Source: a phage. Taken from it: a stretch of DNA of 64,000 bases. Below, one piece after another: positions 8,460 through 39,336 of this stretch (positions are counted from its first letter, which is position 1; the number at the start of each line of letters is the position of its first letter). The notes beneath the pieces were generated by a model. The model had not been told where the DNA came from. It was given only the letters and a program-made list of their open reading frames with translations, and searched no databases. The DNA lies in NCBI GenBank assembly GCA_020279385.1, contig GCA_020279385.1_4762.2; one strand, written 5' to 3'. A program made the position numbers and the translations under genes.

Positions 8460-9056
8460 ATGAAAGAACTTGAATTAAAATACTATGCACACTCACAAAT
8501 TGGCGTCGAAACAATCTGTGATTTGTGGGTAGCAATGTATGACGGGTACAATATCGTAGATCATGCTAACACACTAAAACACGAATTTTATTATGATACC
8601 GAAGAACATGCACTGCGTCGAAAAGGAATTTATGCTCGACTTGACGTTAATAGATCATTGATCATGGTCAAAATAGGTGATGGTGAATCTGGACTATTCA
8701 ACCGAGAAGAAATTACTTTTTCAACAATGGATGATTTTTATCACTATGTTGATAGTCTAGGCGTAAACTCCGACCTTATCGTTCCTTTATTGCAAGTAAT
8801 GACATACCGCAAGTCATTGACACTTGACCTTGAGGGTGCTATAGTGGAAATGTGCAAAGACACTTTATATTATTGCAAAGTCGGTGAAGGGATGGGCGAT
8901 GCTCACTATGAACTTGAGTTCGAGTTAAAATCAGGTGACGAAAAAGCACTTGACATTATCCGAGAAATGATGCTAAAATATGTTGGTGACGATTTACGTC
9001 CTAGCGAAATCTCAAAAGCTGAACGTGGTTTTCAATTAATGACTAAAGAGGGTTAA
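8460..9056 (+). CDS. CYTH-like protein (class IV adenylyl cyclase / triphosphate tunnel metalloenzyme-like)
   Basis: 198 aa; N-terminal ExExK (MKELELKYY) and C-terminal acidic YELEFELK patch typical of CYTH domains; not present between rnh and dsbA in T4 as far as I recall. Confidence 0.5.
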   Translation: MKELELKYYAHSQIGVETICDLWVAMYDGYNIVDHANTLKHEFYYDTEEHALRRKGIYARLDVNRSLIMVKIGDGESGLFNREEITFSTMDDFYHYVDSLGVNSDLIVPLLQVMTYRKSLTLDLEGAIVEMCKDTLYYCKVGEGMGDAHYELEFELKSGDEKALDIIREMMLKYVGDDLRPSEISKAERGFQLMTKEG

Positions 9057-9060
9057 TATT

Positions 9061-9336
9061 ATGACTGAACAGAAAAAAGAAAAAGTAGTATTTGATGAAG
9101 CAGTACACGGAAATACCCTGGCACAACTGATTAAAGAAGCCAGCGATCAGAAAACCATTCAAGAAGCATATGGCGATAAGATCAAAGAGATCAAACAGCG
9201 TGCTAAAGAAGAATTAGGCGTAGATGGTAAAATGTGGGGCATTCTGTTTAAACTGTATCACCAGCAACAGCGCGAAACCTTCGAAGCAGAACGCGACGAA
9301 GCGGTAGAACTCTATGATCGGGTGTTCAATGCTTAA
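9061..9336 (+). CDS. dsbA: dsDNA-binding late-transcription protein DsbA
   Basis: 91 aa, lysine/glutamate-rich; size and position (rnh-dsbA-33) as in T4. Confidence 0.7.
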   Translation: MTEQKKEKVVFDEAVHGNTLAQLIKEASDQKTIQEAYGDKIKEIKQRAKEELGVDGKMWGILFKLYHQQQRETFEAERDEAVELYDRVFNA

Positions 9337-9583
9337 TGAACATGCGGTAAAAGCCGCAAACAAAACAGCAAACGGTCTTGCAATCGAAAAACTGGTTGTT
9401 GAAGAGGGATTGACTTATCTTGAAGCGACAACGCAGTTTGTAGAGGAAAACTCTATCGAATATGGTCACTATCAGAAGTATATTCCGGTGTCCATTATTG
9501 ACAAGATCACACAAGAATGTATAGTAAATAGAACGCTCAGGAAGGGAGTGATCGACGAACCGACCAACACTCTCGATATTTAA
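9314..9583 (+). CDS. 33: Late transcription co-activator gp33
   Basis: LTYLEATTQFVEENSI and C-terminal TNTLDI match T4 gp33 as recalled; start could be 9314 or 9329. Confidence 0.75.
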   Translation: MIGCSMLNEHAVKAANKTANGLAIEKLVVEEGLTYLEATTQFVEENSIEYGHYQKYIPVSIIDKITQECIVNRTLRKGVIDEPTNTLDI

Positions 9584-18033: not shown

Positions 18034-18062
18034 TTGACGCGGGGAGAAATCCCCGCTATAAT
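18034..18062 (+). promoter_or_regulatory. PeSL-type early promoter
   Basis: TTGACG - GCGGGGAGAAATCCCCGC hairpin as 17-nt spacer - TATAAT. Confidence 0.55.
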
Positions 18063-29889: not shown

Positions 29890-29918
29890 TTGACAGGGGA
29901 TCGGTGATCCCCTATAAT
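29890..29918 (+). promoter_or_regulatory. PeSL-type early promoter
   Basis: TTGACA - GGGGATCGGTGATCCCC - TATAAT. Confidence 0.55.
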
Positions 29919-33714: not shown

Positions 33715-33956
33715 AAAGAAAATTAATTAAACGCAATAAGGAATTTCTTAATAACTGCATTAAGGCCGCTAATGGTTGGCCTTTGTTCCTCTTCCTTTAT
33801 GATTGGTATTCTAAACAATCGGTAGAGGAAACACGACACTATAAGAAGATCAGAAAAGAATCATATACAAAACAAGGCCGCATTAACGGACTTTACTTAA
33901 TGTGGCACGGCAAAGAACCTTCTAAAATCTGTGTTGGATTAAAGGGGCGTATATGA
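33711..33956 (+). CDS. Hypothetical protein (81 aa)
   Basis: GTG start overlapping upstream stop (GTGA); basic N-terminus, hydrophobic WPLFLFLYDWY segment. Confidence 0.4.
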   Translation: MKRKLIKRNKEFLNNCIKAANGWPLFLFLYDWYSKQSVEETRHYKKIRKESYTKQGRINGLYLMWHGKEPSKICVGLKGRI

Positions 33957-34669
33957 AACAAAAATTAATATTCTGCAACTTTGACGGATCGGGGATAATG
34001 GGGCTAGAATGGGCTAAAGCAGGTCATAAGGTGATCTGCTTTAATGCTGACGATGGCGACCACGGCACATACAAAAAGTATAATACCCGATTTGAACATC
34101 CAAACATTACCTATGTAAACACATGGATTGATTTGAACTGGCTGGAAAGAGCAATGGACCTTGAATGGGGGAAACCGGATATTATCTTTGCATTCCCACC
34201 GTGCACCAATTTAGCTGTTAGTGGCGCTGCACACTTTGAACGAAAGAAACGAGAACAAGGACCATTGATTCAAGTTCATGATGTAAGGGCAGCTAAAATA
34301 ACCGCTTATTTGGGTGAATGGCTAGGAGTTCCCTACATGATAGAGAATCCTGTAAGCGTTATCTCTAGCATGTGGCGTAAGCCTGATTATATGTTCCATC
34401 CGTGGGAATATGGTGGTTATTTGCCGGAAGATGATAAGCATCCTACGTTTCCTGAGTATATTGCCGCCCGTGATATGTACCCGAAAAAGACTTGCTTATG
34501 GACCGGACAAGGCTTTATGATGCCAGAAAAGAAACCTTTGCAGATTAATAAAGGGTACAGTAAACAGCATTCTAAGCTAGGCGGGAAAGGAACGAAAACA
34601 AAGACTATAAGGTCACTTACCCCGCGAGGATTCGCAAAGGCAGTATTTGAAGCCAATAAGGATCTATGA
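33953..34669 (+). CDS. Cytosine-C5 methyltransferase-like protein (divergent, no obvious target-recognition domain)
   Basis: FCNFDGSGIMG (motif I-like), FAFPPCTNLAVSGA (motif IV-like Pro-Cys), YMIENPVSV (motif VI ENV-like); 238 aa; ATGA overlap with neighbours. Confidence 0.5.
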   Translation: MKQKLIFCNFDGSGIMGLEWAKAGHKVICFNADDGDHGTYKKYNTRFEHPNITYVNTWIDLNWLERAMDLEWGKPDIIFAFPPCTNLAVSGAAHFERKKREQGPLIQVHDVRAAKITAYLGEWLGVPYMIENPVSVISSMWRKPDYMFHPWEYGGYLPEDDKHPTFPEYIAARDMYPKKTCLWTGQGFMMPEKKPLQINKGYSKQHSKLGGKGTKTKTIRSLTPRGFAKAVFEANKDL

Positions 34670-34998
34670 TGAGATTGTTTAAGTATTCGCTAACGTCAAA
34701 TTACGATAAACAAGGTCATTGCATCCGTTGCCCTGATTGTCATAGCCATAACATCGAAAGCAAGATCACCGATCATATTGATGGACTTTGGTCGCCAGCA
34801 AGTGAAATAGAATACTATTGCTCTGATTGTGGAATTGTAGTAGCATATTGGGCATACGGATCATATGATCCATACTTCCAGATGGGAGAGCGTTCAATCC
34901 CTGCGCTCATCTGGAGAATTAAGAACAATATCCGCCATTCATGGGATGAGTTCTTAAAAGATATTGATTTACGTGATGATCCATTCAGGAGACTATAA
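34666..34998 (+). CDS. Zinc-ribbon protein (110 aa)
   Basis: CIRCPDC ... CSDCG (CxxC-x29-CxxC); coupled to flanking genes. Confidence 0.5.
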   Translation: MMRLFKYSLTSNYDKQGHCIRCPDCHSHNIESKITDHIDGLWSPASEIEYYCSDCGIVVAYWAYGSYDPYFQMGERSIPALIWRIKNNIRHSWDEFLKDIDLRDDPFRRL

Positions 34999-34999
34999 C

Positions 35000-35518
35000 A
35001 TGAACCGTTTAACGCCTAAACGCCGCTACTATACCAATACTAAAAACTTTGTTATCTCTGTTTACGAAGCATGGTTAGAAGATGGCTATATCAACATGAA
35101 CCCAGATTATCAGCGTCCTTTAGTATGGGACACCGAAAACAAACGTATGTTTATTGAAAACCTGATTAATGATTTTCCGGTTGGTGCTATCGCAATGGCT
35201 AAGATTGATGATGGCTCTCGCTATGAGATCGAAATCGTGGACGGTAAACAGCGTTTAAACGCAATATTCTCCTTTATGAAGGATGAGTTTAGCATTGCCG
35301 GTAATGATGATTCTATGTTGTATTACAGTGATTTTACGCCAGCAGAAAAGCGACGTTTCCGAAATCTCGGACTACCCGCGATCATGATGGAAGAGAGCAC
35401 ACGAGAAGACCGATTAGAGTATTTCTACAAAACAAACTTTTTCGGTGTGCCTCAATCGGAAGAACATCGCCAGCATGTGATTGCCCTATTGCAAGATGAG
35501 CAATTAAAAAATAACTAA
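35000..35518 (+). CDS. DUF262 (ParB/GmrS N-terminal-like) domain protein
   Basis: DYQRPLVWDTENKRMFIENLINDFPVGAI...IVDGKQRLNAI matches the DUF262 signature (DxQR...W...DGQQR); ATG after CAGGAGA. Confidence 0.6.
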   Translation: MNRLTPKRRYYTNTKNFVISVYEAWLEDGYINMNPDYQRPLVWDTENKRMFIENLINDFPVGAIAMAKIDDGSRYEIEIVDGKQRLNAIFSFMKDEFSIAGNDDSMLYYSDFTPAEKRRFRNLGLPAIMMEESTREDRLEYFYKTNFFGVPQSEEHRQHVIALLQDEQLKNN

Positions 35519-35525
35519 AAAGTTG

Positions 35526-35554
35526 TTGACAGGGGATCGGTGATCCCCTATAAT
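35526..35554 (+). promoter_or_regulatory. PeSL-type early promoter
   Basis: TTGACA - GGGGATCGGTGATCCCC - TATAAT; same spacer as 29890..29918. Confidence 0.55.
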
Positions 35555-35590: not shown

Positions 35591-35803
35591 ATGGCTAACA
35601 TCGAAATCATCATTACCGACGTAACTTATGACCGCATTAACGAAATCGGTACTGCATTACTGGAAGATGGAACAACTCGTACCATCAACTACGCAGAATA
35701 CGTTGAAATGCGTGGTTGTATTAAACGAGTAGGAAAATATACCCTGATTGAAAAAGACTATTCAGGATACACCTTAGAGCAATTGCTTGATGGTGCATTA
35801 TAA
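35591..35803 (+). CDS. Hypothetical protein (70 aa)
   Basis: MANIEIIITDV...; first five codons shared with 33463 ORF, so the repeat runs into the coding start. Confidence 0.5.
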   Translation: MANIEIIITDVTYDRINEIGTALLEDGTTRTINYAEYVEMRGCIKRVGKYTLIEKDYSGYTLEQLLDGAL

Positions 35804-35808
35804 TAAAA

Positions 35809-35833
35809 AGGGGGCGTTAAGCCCCGTTTTCAT
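35809..35833 (+). terminator. Stem-loop / terminator
   Basis: GGGGCGTTAAGCCCC hairpin followed by GTTTTCAT. Confidence 0.5.
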
Positions 35834-35871
35834 AAATATAGGTTTATAGGTTATCAACTAGAGGATATAAA

Positions 35872-37923
35872 ATGTTTAACTTAGAAATCGACGATCTAAT
35901 GATTGAATCTTTCGAGAAATGGCTGTTGACGGAAGAGGAAGAAAACTTTGGCAGTATTGCTCCTGTACAGTGCTTAAAGCCTAAGCAGAATCCTAAACAG
36001 CTTTTTGCAGTACAGACACGCGATAAAGATGTGATTGTCCGTCTTTGCAACTTCACCAACAAAACACCTAAAATCATTCGTATGGGCGACAAGACCGCAC
36101 ATGTTGTACTGTGCGAAATGAACAAAAGCGGTCGTATTGTACAGCTTAAAAATGGTCTAGGCGATAACCCGATTGCAGTCATGGCAAGTGCTTTTGATGT
36201 GGTTATGGAAACAGCCCGTAAAGCGCAATTAGACGCTGTTATGTTCCGTTTTAACGTATCCCGCATGAAAGGTAAGACCGAACTGATTAAGCGCGTTATA
36301 GAGCGTTTGGTGCGTCGTACACCGAAGTTTGAAGTATTCCAGCAGGAAGTAATGACCAGCAAAAAGATCGCTTTAGTTGTTGTCAAGCGTCGCGGGATAG
36401 CGATTGATAAGATTAAAGGGATTAAACTTGATGAATCCTTGTTCACTAAAGTAGAAAGTGATTTAGGTGATCGCTGGGTATCTAAGGCTACTGGTGAATC
36501 TCTGACTAAAGATGAAGCGTATGCGGCTAGTCTTGTGTCAGAAGAAGAACGAAACGCGGAAGCAGAACAACGCGTAGCGGCTAAATCTCGTTTGACTAAA
36601 GAAGAAATGCTGAAAACTCAAGCGACCTATAACAGCGACTATGTGAATCATCCAGAAAAAATTAATCTTAAACCGGAAGAAGATATCACCGAAGCCGAAC
36701 CTAAGAAACAGTTTAATACTCTGATTGACCGTCAAGCCTTAGAACGTTCAACCGCCCGTTCTCTGAATGACTGGACAAGTGATATTATCACTCGCTATGG
36801 TTTCATGCGTACTATTTTTGAAAGCGAAGCCGATGCAAAATACGCAGTAAGCGAACTGGTAAAAGTTCAGGATCAATATGATCCGTTGTCTGCGGAAGTT
36901 ATCGCAGCATCAATCAAACGCTTAAAAGAAATCATGAGCGAGGAAGTATTCGAAAACAAGATCACCGCCCTGGCAATGGATCGAGTAGACCAGTCTATGC
37001 CAGCAGATGTAAAAGCTGAAATGCTGCGTAGTCATATCACCCAGATTAAAACCGATGCCCTACGTAATGTTGCTTCCGGTATGTTTGAAGCAATTGCTAG
37101 CAACATGGGTGAAATGATGGCAGATATTGATCTTGATCTGCCAGGTGCGGAAGGTTTTGTGTTGAGCGAATATGCGGATGCAGCATACATCAATATGAAC
37201 AACTTCCTAACCGACCGTAAGCTGGAAGAATTTGATGGTATCGCAGATCCAGAAGAATTGGTCAAGATGTGCGATGCACTGGATAATGCCTTCTCTAACT
37301 ATGGTGTTAAACTTGATCCGGGTACTATTCTGTATCGTGGTATGGACTTCCGGTCTCAAATGTGGGAAACTGCACGTAAGCAAAAAGCGTTTTACTTTAA
37401 AAACTATGTGAGCACTTCCCTTGCACCTAACATTTTTGGCGGCTGGAATGCAAACGTGGCTAGTGCCGTTGCTGGTGTTGATTCTATGGCTGGCTCTCGC
37501 GGTGAAGGTGGCGCTAATGTTGCTTTCTCCATTGCTGGCGCGGAAAACATCCCTGTATTGCCAGTAGGTAACAAAGCATTTGCTTACAAAGAATGCGAGA
37601 TTTTACTTCCTCGCGGTGTTGTGTTATCCTTTGATACGGTAACTCGTGCTACGGCATCGACGGATTCACAAGAAACTTATTACATTGAGGCACATATTAT
37701 GAACAAAAATGAACTGGCAGCATTACAAGAATCTGGCGAGATGATCGCGGACGGTGATGCATTCATCCGTGAAGGTGTTGTTAAACCTGCTTCTGACCTG
37801 TCTTTCTCCAGCTTTATTACCGAAGCTAAAACCGAACGTAAGAAAGCAGATAAGGCAACTCTACGTCAGCTTATCGCTGATCTGGTATCTGTAGACGCAA
37901 TGCCAGATAAATTTAAAATGTAA
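35872..37923 (+). CDS. alt: Alt-like ADP-ribosyltransferase
   Basis: 683 aa (T4 Alt ~682 aa as recalled); ART R-S-E triad LYRG, YVSTSL, KECEILLPRG; position next to gene 30. Confidence 0.85.
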   Translation: MFNLEIDDLMIESFEKWLLTEEEENFGSIAPVQCLKPKQNPKQLFAVQTRDKDVIVRLCNFTNKTPKIIRMGDKTAHVVLCEMNKSGRIVQLKNGLGDNPIAVMASAFDVVMETARKAQLDAVMFRFNVSRMKGKTELIKRVIERLVRRTPKFEVFQQEVMTSKKIALVVVKRRGIAIDKIKGIKLDESLFTKVESDLGDRWVSKATGESLTKDEAYAASLVSEEERNAEAEQRVAAKSRLTKEEMLKTQATYNSDYVNHPEKINLKPEEDITEAEPKKQFNTLIDRQALERSTARSLNDWTSDIITRYGFMRTIFESEADAKYAVSELVKVQDQYDPLSAEVIAASIKRLKEIMSEEVFENKITALAMDRVDQSMPADVKAEMLRSHITQIKTDALRNVASGMFEAIASNMGEMMADIDLDLPGAEGFVLSEYADAAYINMNNFLTDRKLEEFDGIADPEELVKMCDALDNAFSNYGVKLDPGTILYRGMDFRSQMWETARKQKAFYFKNYVSTSLAPNIFGGWNANVASAVAGVDSMAGSRGEGGANVAFSIAGAENIPVLPVGNKAFAYKECEILLPRGVVLSFDTVTRATASTDSQETYYIEAHIMNKNELAALQESGEMIADGDAFIREGVVKPASDLSFSSFITEAKTERKKADKATLRQLIADLVSVDAMPDKFKM

Positions 37924-37940
37924 TTTTTAAGAAATAATGG

Positions 37941-37985
37941 TTGACTCAAACGGGGACTAGTTTTATACTAGCCCCGTTTTCTGTT
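37941..37985 (+). promoter_or_regulatory. Combined terminator / PeSL-like promoter
   Basis: TTGACT - 17 nt - TATACT with -10 inside CGGGGACTAGTTTTATACTAGCCCCG hairpin followed by TTTTCTG. Confidence 0.45.
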
Positions 37986-38001
37986 ATATGGGAGGTTTAA
38001 A

Positions 38002-38826
38002 ATGTTCAAACAATTACAGGATTTTCGTCTTTCAGAAGAATCACGCGAATCAATGATGGAACGTATGGACAATTATATTGAAACATATGACATTGAGGGG
38101 ATTAATGGTTACATGATCACTGAGATGATCAGCGATCAGATTAACTTTGATGATTATGTGAAGGTTATCCGCTTCCTTGAGCGTGAGACACAAGATTATG
38201 GATTTGTCAAGAAAATCATTAATGTGATGTATGAAGTACACTCCGAAGACTTTGGAGATAATGTATTCAAACATTACAAACATAACAACATAACCCCAGC
38301 AGAATATAATGCAATCTGTGATTATGTATCTGAACAATACGAATGGGTAAATGGTGCTCTCTTAGGGGAAGAAGACATGACCGATGAGATATCAGAGATT
38401 GTCGATTTGATGGATTGCGTCATGGATAAAACCGAAAAGTTAAACGGTACTCTTTATCGCGGTCAACATCTTGACATTCAGACAATAGAGCGCATCATTG
38501 AAGATAAGGAGTTTACCTTTAAAAACTTTGTATCGACCAGCATGACACCGATCATCTTTGGAGGATGGCTATCAAACAGCACTAGCCTTTATTGTGAGAA
38601 TCGATATGAATCAATGACCGGAAAGATGCAACATTCTTGTAATGTATCATGGGTAATTGACGTAAAAGATCATAAAGGTTTTGTTGTTGGGTCAATTGCA
38701 TGGAACCCTTGCGAATGTGAAGTAATTTTACCGCGCGGGACTTGCGTCAAGGTAAACGACGTAGTAGAATCTTTCGGCGATGAGAATCGTAGACAATTTA
38801 CAATTTTCGGTGAGGTGACTAAATGA
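38002..38826 (+). CDS. Second ADP-ribosyltransferase (Alt/Mod-like paralogue, 274 aa)
   Basis: LYRGQHL, KNFVSTSMTP, CECEVILPRG: same R / STS / ExE triad and flanking context as the Alt C-terminal domain. Confidence 0.75.
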   Translation: MFKQLQDFRLSEESRESMMERMDNYIETYDIEGINGYMITEMISDQINFDDYVKVIRFLERETQDYGFVKKIINVMYEVHSEDFGDNVFKHYKHNNITPAEYNAICDYVSEQYEWVNGALLGEEDMTDEISEIVDLMDCVMDKTEKLNGTLYRGQHLDIQTIERIIEDKEFTFKNFVSTSMTPIIFGGWLSNSTSLYCENRYESMTGKMQHSCNVSWVIDVKDHKGFVVGSIAWNPCECEVILPRGTCVKVNDVVESFGDENRRQFTIFGEVTK

Positions 38827-39308
38827 AAATGATTAAACTGATTGGTCTTGCGGCTGCATTCATGCTTACTGGTTGTGCCAACATGGAAGCTATGATGAAT
38901 GCTAAATCAGATCCGGTTTTCTTGCTTCGTGAATGTAAAGCAGCATATGCAAGTGATGATCAGATCGAATCGTGCTTTATTTCTAAAATGGAACGTCGAG
39001 ACGTGGATCGCGTTAAAGTTGGTTTAGCACCACAAACGCAGATGTTCAAGGATGCAATCAAAGAAGCGCGGGAAGAGAAAGCACAAGAAGAAAAGAAGCG
39101 TCAAGAAGAATTGCGCAAGCAGAAAGAAGAGTCTATACAACTTGAGAAGATGAAAGCACGGGATCGCTGTATTATCATGTCTGACATGCAGATAGAGCAA
39201 GAAGCAAGAAAGGCAGCATTAAACGGTGATTATGACCGTTATGAAGAACTTAACAGCGCAGAATTTCAAACTAAGGCACTAAAATATTGCAATGATTTAG
39301 CAAAATAA
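38823..39308 (+). CDS. Putative lipoprotein with charged coiled-coil region
   Basis: Signal peptide MKMIKLIGLAAAFMLTGC with lipobox LTGC; K/E-rich EEKKRQEELRKQKEE segment. Confidence 0.6.
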   Translation: MKMIKLIGLAAAFMLTGCANMEAMMNAKSDPVFLLRECKAAYASDDQIESCFISKMERRDVDRVKVGLAPQTQMFKDAIKEAREEKAQEEKKRQEELRKQKEESIQLEKMKARDRCIIMSDMQIEQEARKAALNGDYDRYEELNSAEFQTKALKYCNDLAK

Positions 39309-39336
39309 AAAGGCGGGGGATAATCCCCGCCTTTCG
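39309..39336. terminator. Hairpin between convergent genes
   Basis: AGGCGGGGGATAATCCCCGCCT between plus-strand lipoprotein gene and minus-strand gene 54. Confidence 0.55.

Follow-up and report, generated by a model that had tools for sequence, protein, structure and literature searches.

An Alt-related ADP-ribosyltransferase gene behind its own early-type promoter, next to alt in a Krischvirus phage

The three ADP-ribosyltransferases (ARTs) of phage T4 are a textbook case of a virus that reprograms host transcription and translation by covalent modification, and T4-type phages of the RB49 kind are used in phage-therapy cocktails. In the T4 record, the three enzymes are alt, modA and modB. T4 gpAlt, of which the scaffolding core contains about 40 copies, loses a small N-terminal peptide to cleavage by gp21 (PMC9958956); mutation of a glutamate in its ExE motif, E577A, inactivates the enzyme (PMC11404850). 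Here, this system is compared with two adjacent genes in a 64,000-nucleotide stretch of phage DNA (GenBank assembly GCA_020279385.1, contig GCA_020279385.1_4762.2; the whole stretch is referred to as the window). By megablast, the window belongs to the genus Krischvirus, RB49-like T4-type coliphages, with DNA identities of 99.0% to Shigella phage Sf20 and of 98.4-98.9% to RB49, Phi1 and GEC-3S. An earlier note, made from the sequence alone, had described an Alt homologue of 683 amino acids followed by a smaller paralogue of 274 amino acids, and had proposed that the latter is a second transferase with a different target or timing. The positions and lengths that it gave for the two open reading frames (ORFs) are exact:

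35872-37923, + strand: alt, encoding the 683-amino-acid Alt ADP-ribosyltransferase
38002-38826, + strand: small ART gene, encoding 274 amino acids with a helical subdomain and a C3/VIP2-type ART core

The pair is real and looks functional, and it is already known. Specifically, the smaller gene is the orthologue of RB49ORF183c and is labelled 'ADP-ribosyltransferase' in the RefSeq records of RB49, Phi1, GEC-3S, JSE, ECD7 and KFS-EC, and Nolan et al. (2006; PMC1524935) described RB49ORF183c, 44RRORF188c and T4 alt.-1/alt.-2 as apparent paralogous duplicates of the neighbouring alt, with 44RRORF187c as a full-length alt duplicate. The small gene is therefore not new, and the pair, an uncharacterised and unsurprising enzyme of a well-known family together with its neighbour, opens no new question by virtue of having been annotated and noted before. 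What the present analysis adds is the timing logic of a conserved promoter embedded in a terminator, the evidence that the small lineage is old and under purifying selection, and a mosaic cassette that includes a lipoprotein gene. The existing annotation, a separate mod gene in the phage and the membership of the promoter in a known class are facts that go beyond the earlier note.

The data make it likely that the two genes divide their labour: Alt would be made late, trimmed and injected, and the small protein would be an early-made, cytoplasmic, arginine-specific ART with a role resembling that of ModA and ModB. The enzymatic activity, the early timing and the absence from virions are the parts of this arrangement that we infer. 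An injected Alt alongside an early-made, Alt-derived enzyme would constitute a natural experiment in which the Alt catalytic module is delivered in one case and expressed in the other; such a comparison may reveal which of the targets are important.

The catalytic half of Alt has a true paralogue in the smaller ORF. All motifs quoted in the earlier note are found in both proteins, within residues 487-582 of Alt (LYRG 487-490, KNYVSTSL 510-517, ECEILLPRG 574-582) and residues 151-246 of the small protein (LYRGQHL 151-157, FKNFVSTSM 173-181, ECEVILPRG 238-246). BLASTP aligns the two with 37% identity over 109 amino acids (E=1e-16), and hhalign matches residues 66-273 of the small-family profile to residues 394-610 of a 44-sequence Alt profile (probability 100%, E=5e-44). 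The Pfam domain PF03496 is recognised in the small protein at 59.3 bits (cut-off 23.4; E=4e-16), and PHROGs places 274 of its 274 residues in phrog_15144, 'ADP-ribosyltransferase' (E=4e-198), and secondarily aligns the protein with positions 330-602 of the Alt profile. PF03496 is its only Pfam domain; the N-terminal domain PF26846 was not found on the 274-amino-acid protein, and homology to Alt begins at residues ~315-394. As aligned, the small ART is equivalent to Alt ~315-610 only. Relative to T4 Alt, it lacks residues 1-~315 (propeptide, alpha/beta domain and helical linker), in keeping with the long N-terminal region that the earlier note had found missing, and also a C-terminal tail of ~70 residues; its promoter is of the early and not of the late type, and it falls in a separate clade, with ~32-35% identity to any Alt catalytic domain.

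The alignment of the two catalytic domains, which the earlier note had proposed as a check, was run, and R, STS and ExE are retained in both proteins rather than lost on realignment:

37336-37599, + strand: catalytic residues of Alt, R489 (37336-37338), S514-T515-S516 (37411-37419) and E574-C-E576 (37591-37599)
38458-38721, + strand: catalytic residues of the small ART, R153 (38458-38460), S178-T179-S180 (38533-38541) and E238-C-E240 (38713-38721)

The residues of the small ART do not vary among six family members, whose identity goes down to 42%, and R489, S514, E574 and E576 of Alt are invariant among 44 Alt homologues. Across 68 Alt-like domains, the arginine and the first glutamate are present in all (68/68 each), and the serine and the second glutamate in all except one (67/68 each). 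As R153, S178-T-S180 and E238-x-E240 are intact, the small ART should be an arginine-specific mono-ADP-ribosyltransferase that uses NAD+. Its AlphaFold2 model, built from a 10-sequence alignment (pLDDT 89, pTM 0.86), consists of a disordered N-terminus (residues 1-11, pLDDT 63), a helical bundle (12-143) and a beta-sandwich core (146-272). With this model, Foldseek retrieves from the PDB only ARTs of the R-S-E type, namely Vis (7e-11), C3bot2, Certhrax, CDTa, iota Ia and C2-I; of these, Vis, CDTa and iota Ia are arginine-specific. A sequence search of the PDB returned nothing close (top match Tre1, E=0.07), and neither of the two ARTs was matched in the NCBIfam and PADLOC scans. The C3 exoenzymes, Vis and the VIP2-iota-CDTa group (PF03496) are secreted bacterial toxins with eukaryotic targets and are 15-20% identical to the small ART, which differs from these domains in being a phage protein and in carrying an extra N-terminal helical bundle at residues ~12-91.

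The larger protein, in turn, is a full-length orthologue of T4 Alt (PHROG 802; PF26846 plus PF03496), and agrees with it in domain order, in the R/STS/ExE residues and in its place in the genome, which lies between the gene 30 region and genes 54/48/29; an N-terminal (L/I)xE motif of the propeptide type and a late-type promoter box are further common features. PHROGs assigns the window protein to the Alt family phrog_802 (E=2e-179), and it contains both PF26846 (Tevenvirinae_ADPRT) and PF03496, the latter at 37.3 bits and thus above the 23.4-bit gathering cut-off. Its site aligns with T4 Alt R478 / S503-T504-S505 / E574-x-E576; the second glutamate of the ExE is the residue mutated in the published E577A, and the translated T4 record (L004 2765-4813) reads E574-M-E576, an off-by-one numbering. 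The AlphaFold2 model of Alt, from a 44-sequence alignment (pLDDT 83, pTM 0.79), has the following layout:

before residue ~30: N-terminal helix/propeptide, the propeptide ending at LTE21
residues ~30-205: alpha/beta domain
residues 213-477: long helical region
residues 487-609: ART core
residues 612-671: C-terminal helices

All 44 aligned Alt homologues have an N-terminal leader of variable length that ends in (L/I)xE and is followed by (V/A/L)FD. The window site reads LTE21 followed by EEE, with E21 as an invariant column, and the motif fits a small peptide cut off by the T4 prohead protease. The leader would be 21 residues long in the window (35872-35940, residues 1-23), compared with a T4 motif, ITE, that ends at residue 6.

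The proposed difference in timing comes from the intergenic region between the two genes. In RB49, promoter-early stem-loop (PeSL) elements act as strong early sigma70 promoters and as efficient terminators, and lacZ fusions have shown activity for other RB49 PeSLs, namely 193/192, 206/205 and 211/210 (PMC2839356); PeSLs furthermore mediate the modular shuffling of accessory genes (PMC2839356, PMC4122927). By its sequence, the element between alt and the small gene is such a composite terminator/promoter cassette:

37941-37969, + strand: sigma70-type early promoter, with -35 TTGACT (37941-37946), a 17-nt spacer and -10 TATACT (37964-37969)
37951-37980, + strand: terminator hairpin CGGGGACTAG...CTAGCCCCG plus TTTT, with its stem-loop at 37951-37976 and the -10 hexamer in the loop and 3' arm
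37990-37995, + strand: Shine-Dalgarno sequence GGGAGG, 6 nt 5' of the small ART ATG

Each part of the published PeSL definition (PMC2839356) is present here, that is, GTTGACT-17-TATACT, an AT-rich upstream region, a G-tract/C-tract stem-loop overlapping the -10, a GGGAGG Shine-Dalgarno sequence and an ATG. The G before the -35 (GTTGAC) and an A-rich stretch upstream accompany the promoter, which also fits the description of RB49 early promoters by Nolan et al. (2006; PMC1524935), and the GEC-3S annotation has a promoter at the corresponding site. All described parts are likewise shared with the PeSLs of RB49 and phi1 (Arbiol et al. 2010; Comeau et al. 2014), as are flanking genes with recombination breakpoints. 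The sigma70-type promoter that the earlier note had placed at 37941 thus holds up, and it is kept in five divergent relatives: TTGAC(T/A)-17-TATACT together with the hairpin occurs in six lineages (the window, L012, L013, L005, L014 and L015) whose proteins are 42-84% identical. The hairpin at 37951-37976 has a folding energy of -18.9 kcal/mol (z -5.1), a stability that none of 200 shuffles equalled, the version in L005 reaches -17.8, and the stem shows compensatory changes among the six lineages (CTAG/CTAG, TCAG/CTGA, ACAG/CTGT). The element differs in two respects from what might be expected. In most PeSLs of the window the hairpin lies wholly within the spacer (for example at 35526, 33150 and 29890), whereas at 37941 a longer stem spans the -10 and is followed by a T-run, and the element is conserved across much deeper divergence than a shuffling hot spot predicts. 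With the -10 in the loop and 3' arm, RNA that reads in from alt would form the full terminator, whereas RNA initiated at the promoter would start near the 3' end of the stem and could not.

The signals in front of alt are of another kind:

35811-35825, + strand: terminator hairpin GGGGCGTTAAGCCCC plus T-run, from the terminator scan, closing the upstream early transcription unit
35831-35838, + strand: late-promoter-like box CATAAATA, T4-type, 34 nt upstream of the alt ATG and directly after the terminator hairpin

The RNA fold of 35800-35835 has an energy of -14.2 kcal/mol (z -3.4), an equivalent hairpin precedes alt in L005, and the hairpin at 35811-35825 is predicted to insulate alt from early read-through. 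We infer that CATAAATA serves alt as a late-type NATAAATA box. Its distance from the ATG equals that of the TATAAATA/AATAAATA boxes that precede late genes at other places in the window, and L005, a relative with 44% identity, has a terminator and AATAAATA at the same place before alt; the first base of the RB49 late box is variable (Nolan et al. 2006, PMC1524935). No early promoter was found in the intergenic sequence directly upstream of alt. On the + strand, NATAAATA does not occur between 35831 and 49047, and no late box precedes the small gene. With a late-type box behind a terminator for alt and an early promoter within the hairpin that terminates alt, a difference in timing is the best supported of the suggestions in the earlier note.

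The available data favour a model in which alt is transcribed late and Alt becomes part of the prohead core, loses its N-terminal end to the prohead protease and enters the cell together with the DNA. The late alt transcripts would stop at the PeSL hairpin. The small ART gene and the overlapping lipoprotein gene behind it would be transcribed early, from the sigma70 promoter in that same hairpin, and these early transcripts would escape termination because they begin downstream of most of it. Owing to this early PeSL promoter, the small ART would be synthesised de novo within the first minutes after infection and would act in the cytoplasm on host proteins, where, by analogy, it may do the job of T4 ModA and ModB.

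Several points weigh against this division of labour. The timing is read from promoter and terminator sequence only, and a literature search for expression, proteomic or enzymatic work on the small ART in RB49-like phages found none; a search for a Krischvirus virion proteome likewise found nothing usable. Terminators can be leaky, so that some late expression from the late promoter of alt is possible. The functional parallel to ModA and ModB is one of analogy, as the small ART is no Mod homologue, and the phylogeny described below comes from a neighbour-joining (NJ) tree of a short, saturated domain with modest support. Finally, (L/I)xE occurs within the first ~17 residues of six of eight small-family members (LSE12 followed by E in the window), compared with 27% of window ORFs, and this motif could mark processing by the prohead protease and hence packaging.

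This last point leads to a different explanation, in which the small ART is also packaged in the head and injected: it would be targeted to the core and trimmed after LSE12 in the manner of gp21 processing, and two ARTs would be delivered with the DNA. The enrichment of (L/I)xE exists despite N-termini that cannot be aligned, residues 1-11 are those predicted to be disordered, and the context L-[ST]-E followed by E resembles the LTE21-EEE of Alt. T4 internal proteins as well as gpAlt lose small N-terminal peptides (PMC9958956), and Iyer et al. (2022) argued that many myovirus ARTs are packaged. The motif is weak evidence, though, as it is short and occurs often, and as the eight sequences are relatives of one another. 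Moreover, the small gene has no late-promoter box in front of it and is separated from the late alt transcript by a strong, conserved terminator, and its product lacks both the (L/I)xE-(V/A)FD context and the whole N-terminal domain of the packaged-type Alts. We therefore regard packaging of the small ART as quite unlikely and continue with an early-made enzyme as the preferred account.

The evolutionary data indicate that the small ART is an old and independently evolving lineage. Word-index homologue searches gave 8 and 2 proteins only, so that an exhaustive profile search was needed; among 1.84 billion representatives, this search recovered just three further clusters, at 50% identity, of the small family, followed by full-length Alts of 600-712 amino acids and then by polyvalent giants. 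In an NJ tree of 172 catalytic-domain columns from 68 sequences, the small family is monophyletic in 145 of 200 bootstraps. The two Krischvirus-type Alts group together in 197 of the 200 replicates and are sister to the small family in none, and the distance from the small family to its own alt (1.66) is the same as that from the Krischvirus alt to T4 alt (1.66). These bootstraps and equal distances point to an old lineage instead of a recent copy, and they rule out a recent duplication of the resident alt. Orthology with the second alt copy of the T2 type is not supported either (0/200 bootstraps), even though T2_202 and L009_415 are nearest by raw distance (1.38). In isolated phages, the small ART occurs in Krischvirus only, where it is intact in 59 of 59 records at 96.7% identity or more. 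Compared with L012, its dN/dS is 0.089 at a dS of 1.24, with segments ranging from 0.03 to 0.14, which is the signature of a gene under purifying selection.

Second alt copies at the same locus, directly downstream of alt, are also known elsewhere (T2_202, 44RRORF187c/188c, T4 alt.-1/alt.-2), so that tandem ART paralogy recurs in T4-type genomes. In T2, the slot holds a full-length paralogue of 685 amino acids (L003 2247-4304). In a T2-like metagenomic contig (L009 7183-9248), it is split into ORFs of 273 (N-domain) and 415 (ART) amino acids, and in T4 (L004 4817-5202), alt.-1 and alt.-2 are remnants of 61 and 67 amino acids. A further T4-like contig (L008 2366-4386) has its only visible alt-like gene split into ORFs of 356 and 316 amino acids with overlapping stop and start. 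The T2-type copy differs from the RB49-type gene in being full length and in belonging to another clade, and the T4 ORFs are mere remnants, whereas the RB49-type gene is stable, under selection, limited to the catalytic half and equipped with its own promoter.

The T-even locus thus shows every stage of decay, from 685 amino acids through the 273 + 415 split to the 61- and 67-residue pieces, and the grouping by Nolan et al. (2006; PMC1524935) of the small gene with T4 alt.-1/alt.-2 would be in line with the idea that the 274-amino-acid ORF is itself a decaying remnant of a tandem alt duplication without enzymatic function. This is highly improbable, as the low dN/dS of 0.089 is measured at a dS of 1.24, none of the catalytic residues varies even at 42% identity, the predicted fold is confident and complete, the promoter, Shine-Dalgarno sequence and terminator are its own and conserved, and the gene is intact in every one of the 59 Krischvirus records. 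Indeed, the data on selection and conservation already effectively refute decay.

How an early Alt-related enzyme would fit into the ART repertoire follows from a comparison of RB49 with T4. In RB49, alt and the small Alt-like gene are accompanied by a single mod gene. The latter (RB49p014, annotated modB) encodes 167 amino acids next to srd, with R44, S70 and E132-x-E134 intact, and lies outside the window at 8917-9420 of RB49 (L011 1918-2421). Searching by tblastn with T4 ModB finds RB49p014, at 9082-9417 (E=1e-3), and not the small ART gene; in T4, alt is all that the small ORF matched at E<=1e-5. T4 ModA and ModB (~200 amino acids) resemble the small ART in being small stand-alone ARTs with R, an S-x-S-type motif and ExE, apparently expressed early from sigma70 promoters. 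They differ from it in having no homology beyond the ART superfamily and in lying at another locus (srd/dda), and the small ART has an additional N-terminal helical subdomain. RB49-type phages, furthermore, have no MotA-dependent middle promoters (Nolan et al. 2006, PMC1524935). The strong form of a replacement, in which the small ART stands in for both ModA and ModB, is ruled out, since RB49 has one mod gene with intact R/S/ExE. A weaker form survives, in which one mod and one Alt-derived ART face the two mods of T4; with its single mod, an RB49-type phage again arrives at a total of three ARTs.

Downstream, the small ART gene is followed by a gene for a lipoprotein and by a terminator:

38823-39308, + strand: predicted lipoprotein of 161 amino acids with a MKMIKLIGLAAAFMLTGC lipobox, its start overlapping the stop of the small ART (ATGA)
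39308-39335, both strands: bidirectional terminator hairpin from the terminator scan, closing the small-ART/lipoprotein operon (+) and gene 54 (-)

The lipoprotein gene is predicted to be translationally coupled to, and co-transcribed with, the small ART gene. The hairpin has an energy of -19.2 kcal/mol (z -3.7) and is annotated as a both-strand terminator in GEC-3S. The 161-amino-acid ORF belongs to PHROG 16112, which has no assigned function, and is a 'putative lipoprotein' in the annotation of phage W115. An ORF of 155-170 amino acids follows the small ART wherever downstream sequence exists (L005, L006, L007, L012, L013, L015; the L014 contig ends at the ART stop), and the lipoprotein is 38% identical to the version in L005 (8828-9307) and 33% to that in L012 (2712-3224). 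The protein itself has a lipobox LTGC, conserved cysteines and a KE-rich, coiled-coil-like middle, and the sole pointer to a role is a weak match, at the level of the signal peptide, to the superinfection-exclusion protein Cor (E=0.007).

Divergence between the window and L012 rises along the three genes:

alt (603 codons): 98% amino acid identity, dS 0.28
small ART: 84% amino acid identity, dS 1.24
lipoprotein ORF: 33% amino acid identity, dS 2.2 (near saturation)

Precisely where the small gene starts (38010), DNA identity goes down from ~0.95 to ~0.7; it drops to ~0.4 from ~38900 and recovers at ~39277. Inside the small ART, identity is 72% for the N-terminal helical half and 95% for the catalytic half. 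The cassette of small ART and lipoprotein genes is thus mosaic between close relatives, as an exchange of modules mediated by PeSLs predicts.

This mosaic raises the question whether the small ART might instead be an arms-race effector on a mobile PeSL cassette, with a host defence or stress protein or a non-protein substrate (transfer of NAD-capped RNA) as its target in place of the transcription and translation machinery. The graded identities, with breakpoints at the PeSL and at gene borders, would agree with such a role, as would the modular shuffling of accessory genes by PeSLs, the restriction of the gene to Krischvirus among isolated phages (59 records) and the faster divergence of the N-terminal helical half compared with the catalytic half. 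ModB RNAylation offers a precedent, and T4 Alt modifies MazF. On the other hand, every Krischvirus record found contains the gene, and all six divergent lineages have it in the same place; it therefore behaves as a stable rather than a sporadic accessory gene; dN/dS is low throughout, with no sign of positive selection, and no sequence feature points to a particular target. An arms-race role is accordingly unlikely. Similarly doubtful is a broader version, in which the small ART gene joins the hypervariable lipoprotein gene in a single early module, bounded by PeSLs and exchangeable, for host-specific counter-defence or superinfection control, with versions swapped among Krischvirus lineages to track their hosts. 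In such a module, the ART would disable a cytoplasmic immunity or stress protein of the host or transfer NAD-capped RNA as ModB does, and the lipoprotein would act at the cell surface.

The remaining observations concern the surroundings of the pair. Near-consensus sigma70 promoters (GTTGACA-17-TATAAT type) lie on the + strand at 18034, 20604, 20885, 28751, 29890, 30123, 33150, 33394, 35526 and 37941. The series carries a GGGG...CCCC hairpin in the spacer or across the -10, with at least nine PeSL-like promoters upstream of 37941. Several of these are nearly identical, for example those at 29890 and 35526, and are for this reason likely substrates of recombination. Beyond the 161-amino-acid ORF, the minus strand carries genes matching T4 gp54 (tail-tube-type), gp48 and gp29, the gp48 match (tail-tube cap) being to PF11091 (E=6e-125). 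Upstream, the early gene block just before the alt region includes a 238-amino-acid ORF (33953-34669, + strand), a DNA methyltransferase according to the GEC-3S annotation. A 184-amino-acid ORF (34964-35518, + strand) has a DUF262/ParB-like 'DGKQR' N-terminal domain of the nuclease type and matches only the first half of the PADLOC profiles NsnA (E=1e-20) and PD-T4-2_A (E=6e-12) as well as positions 9-183 of 417 of the PHROG 1583 profile; it is a phage-borne, truncated relative of defence-system proteins.

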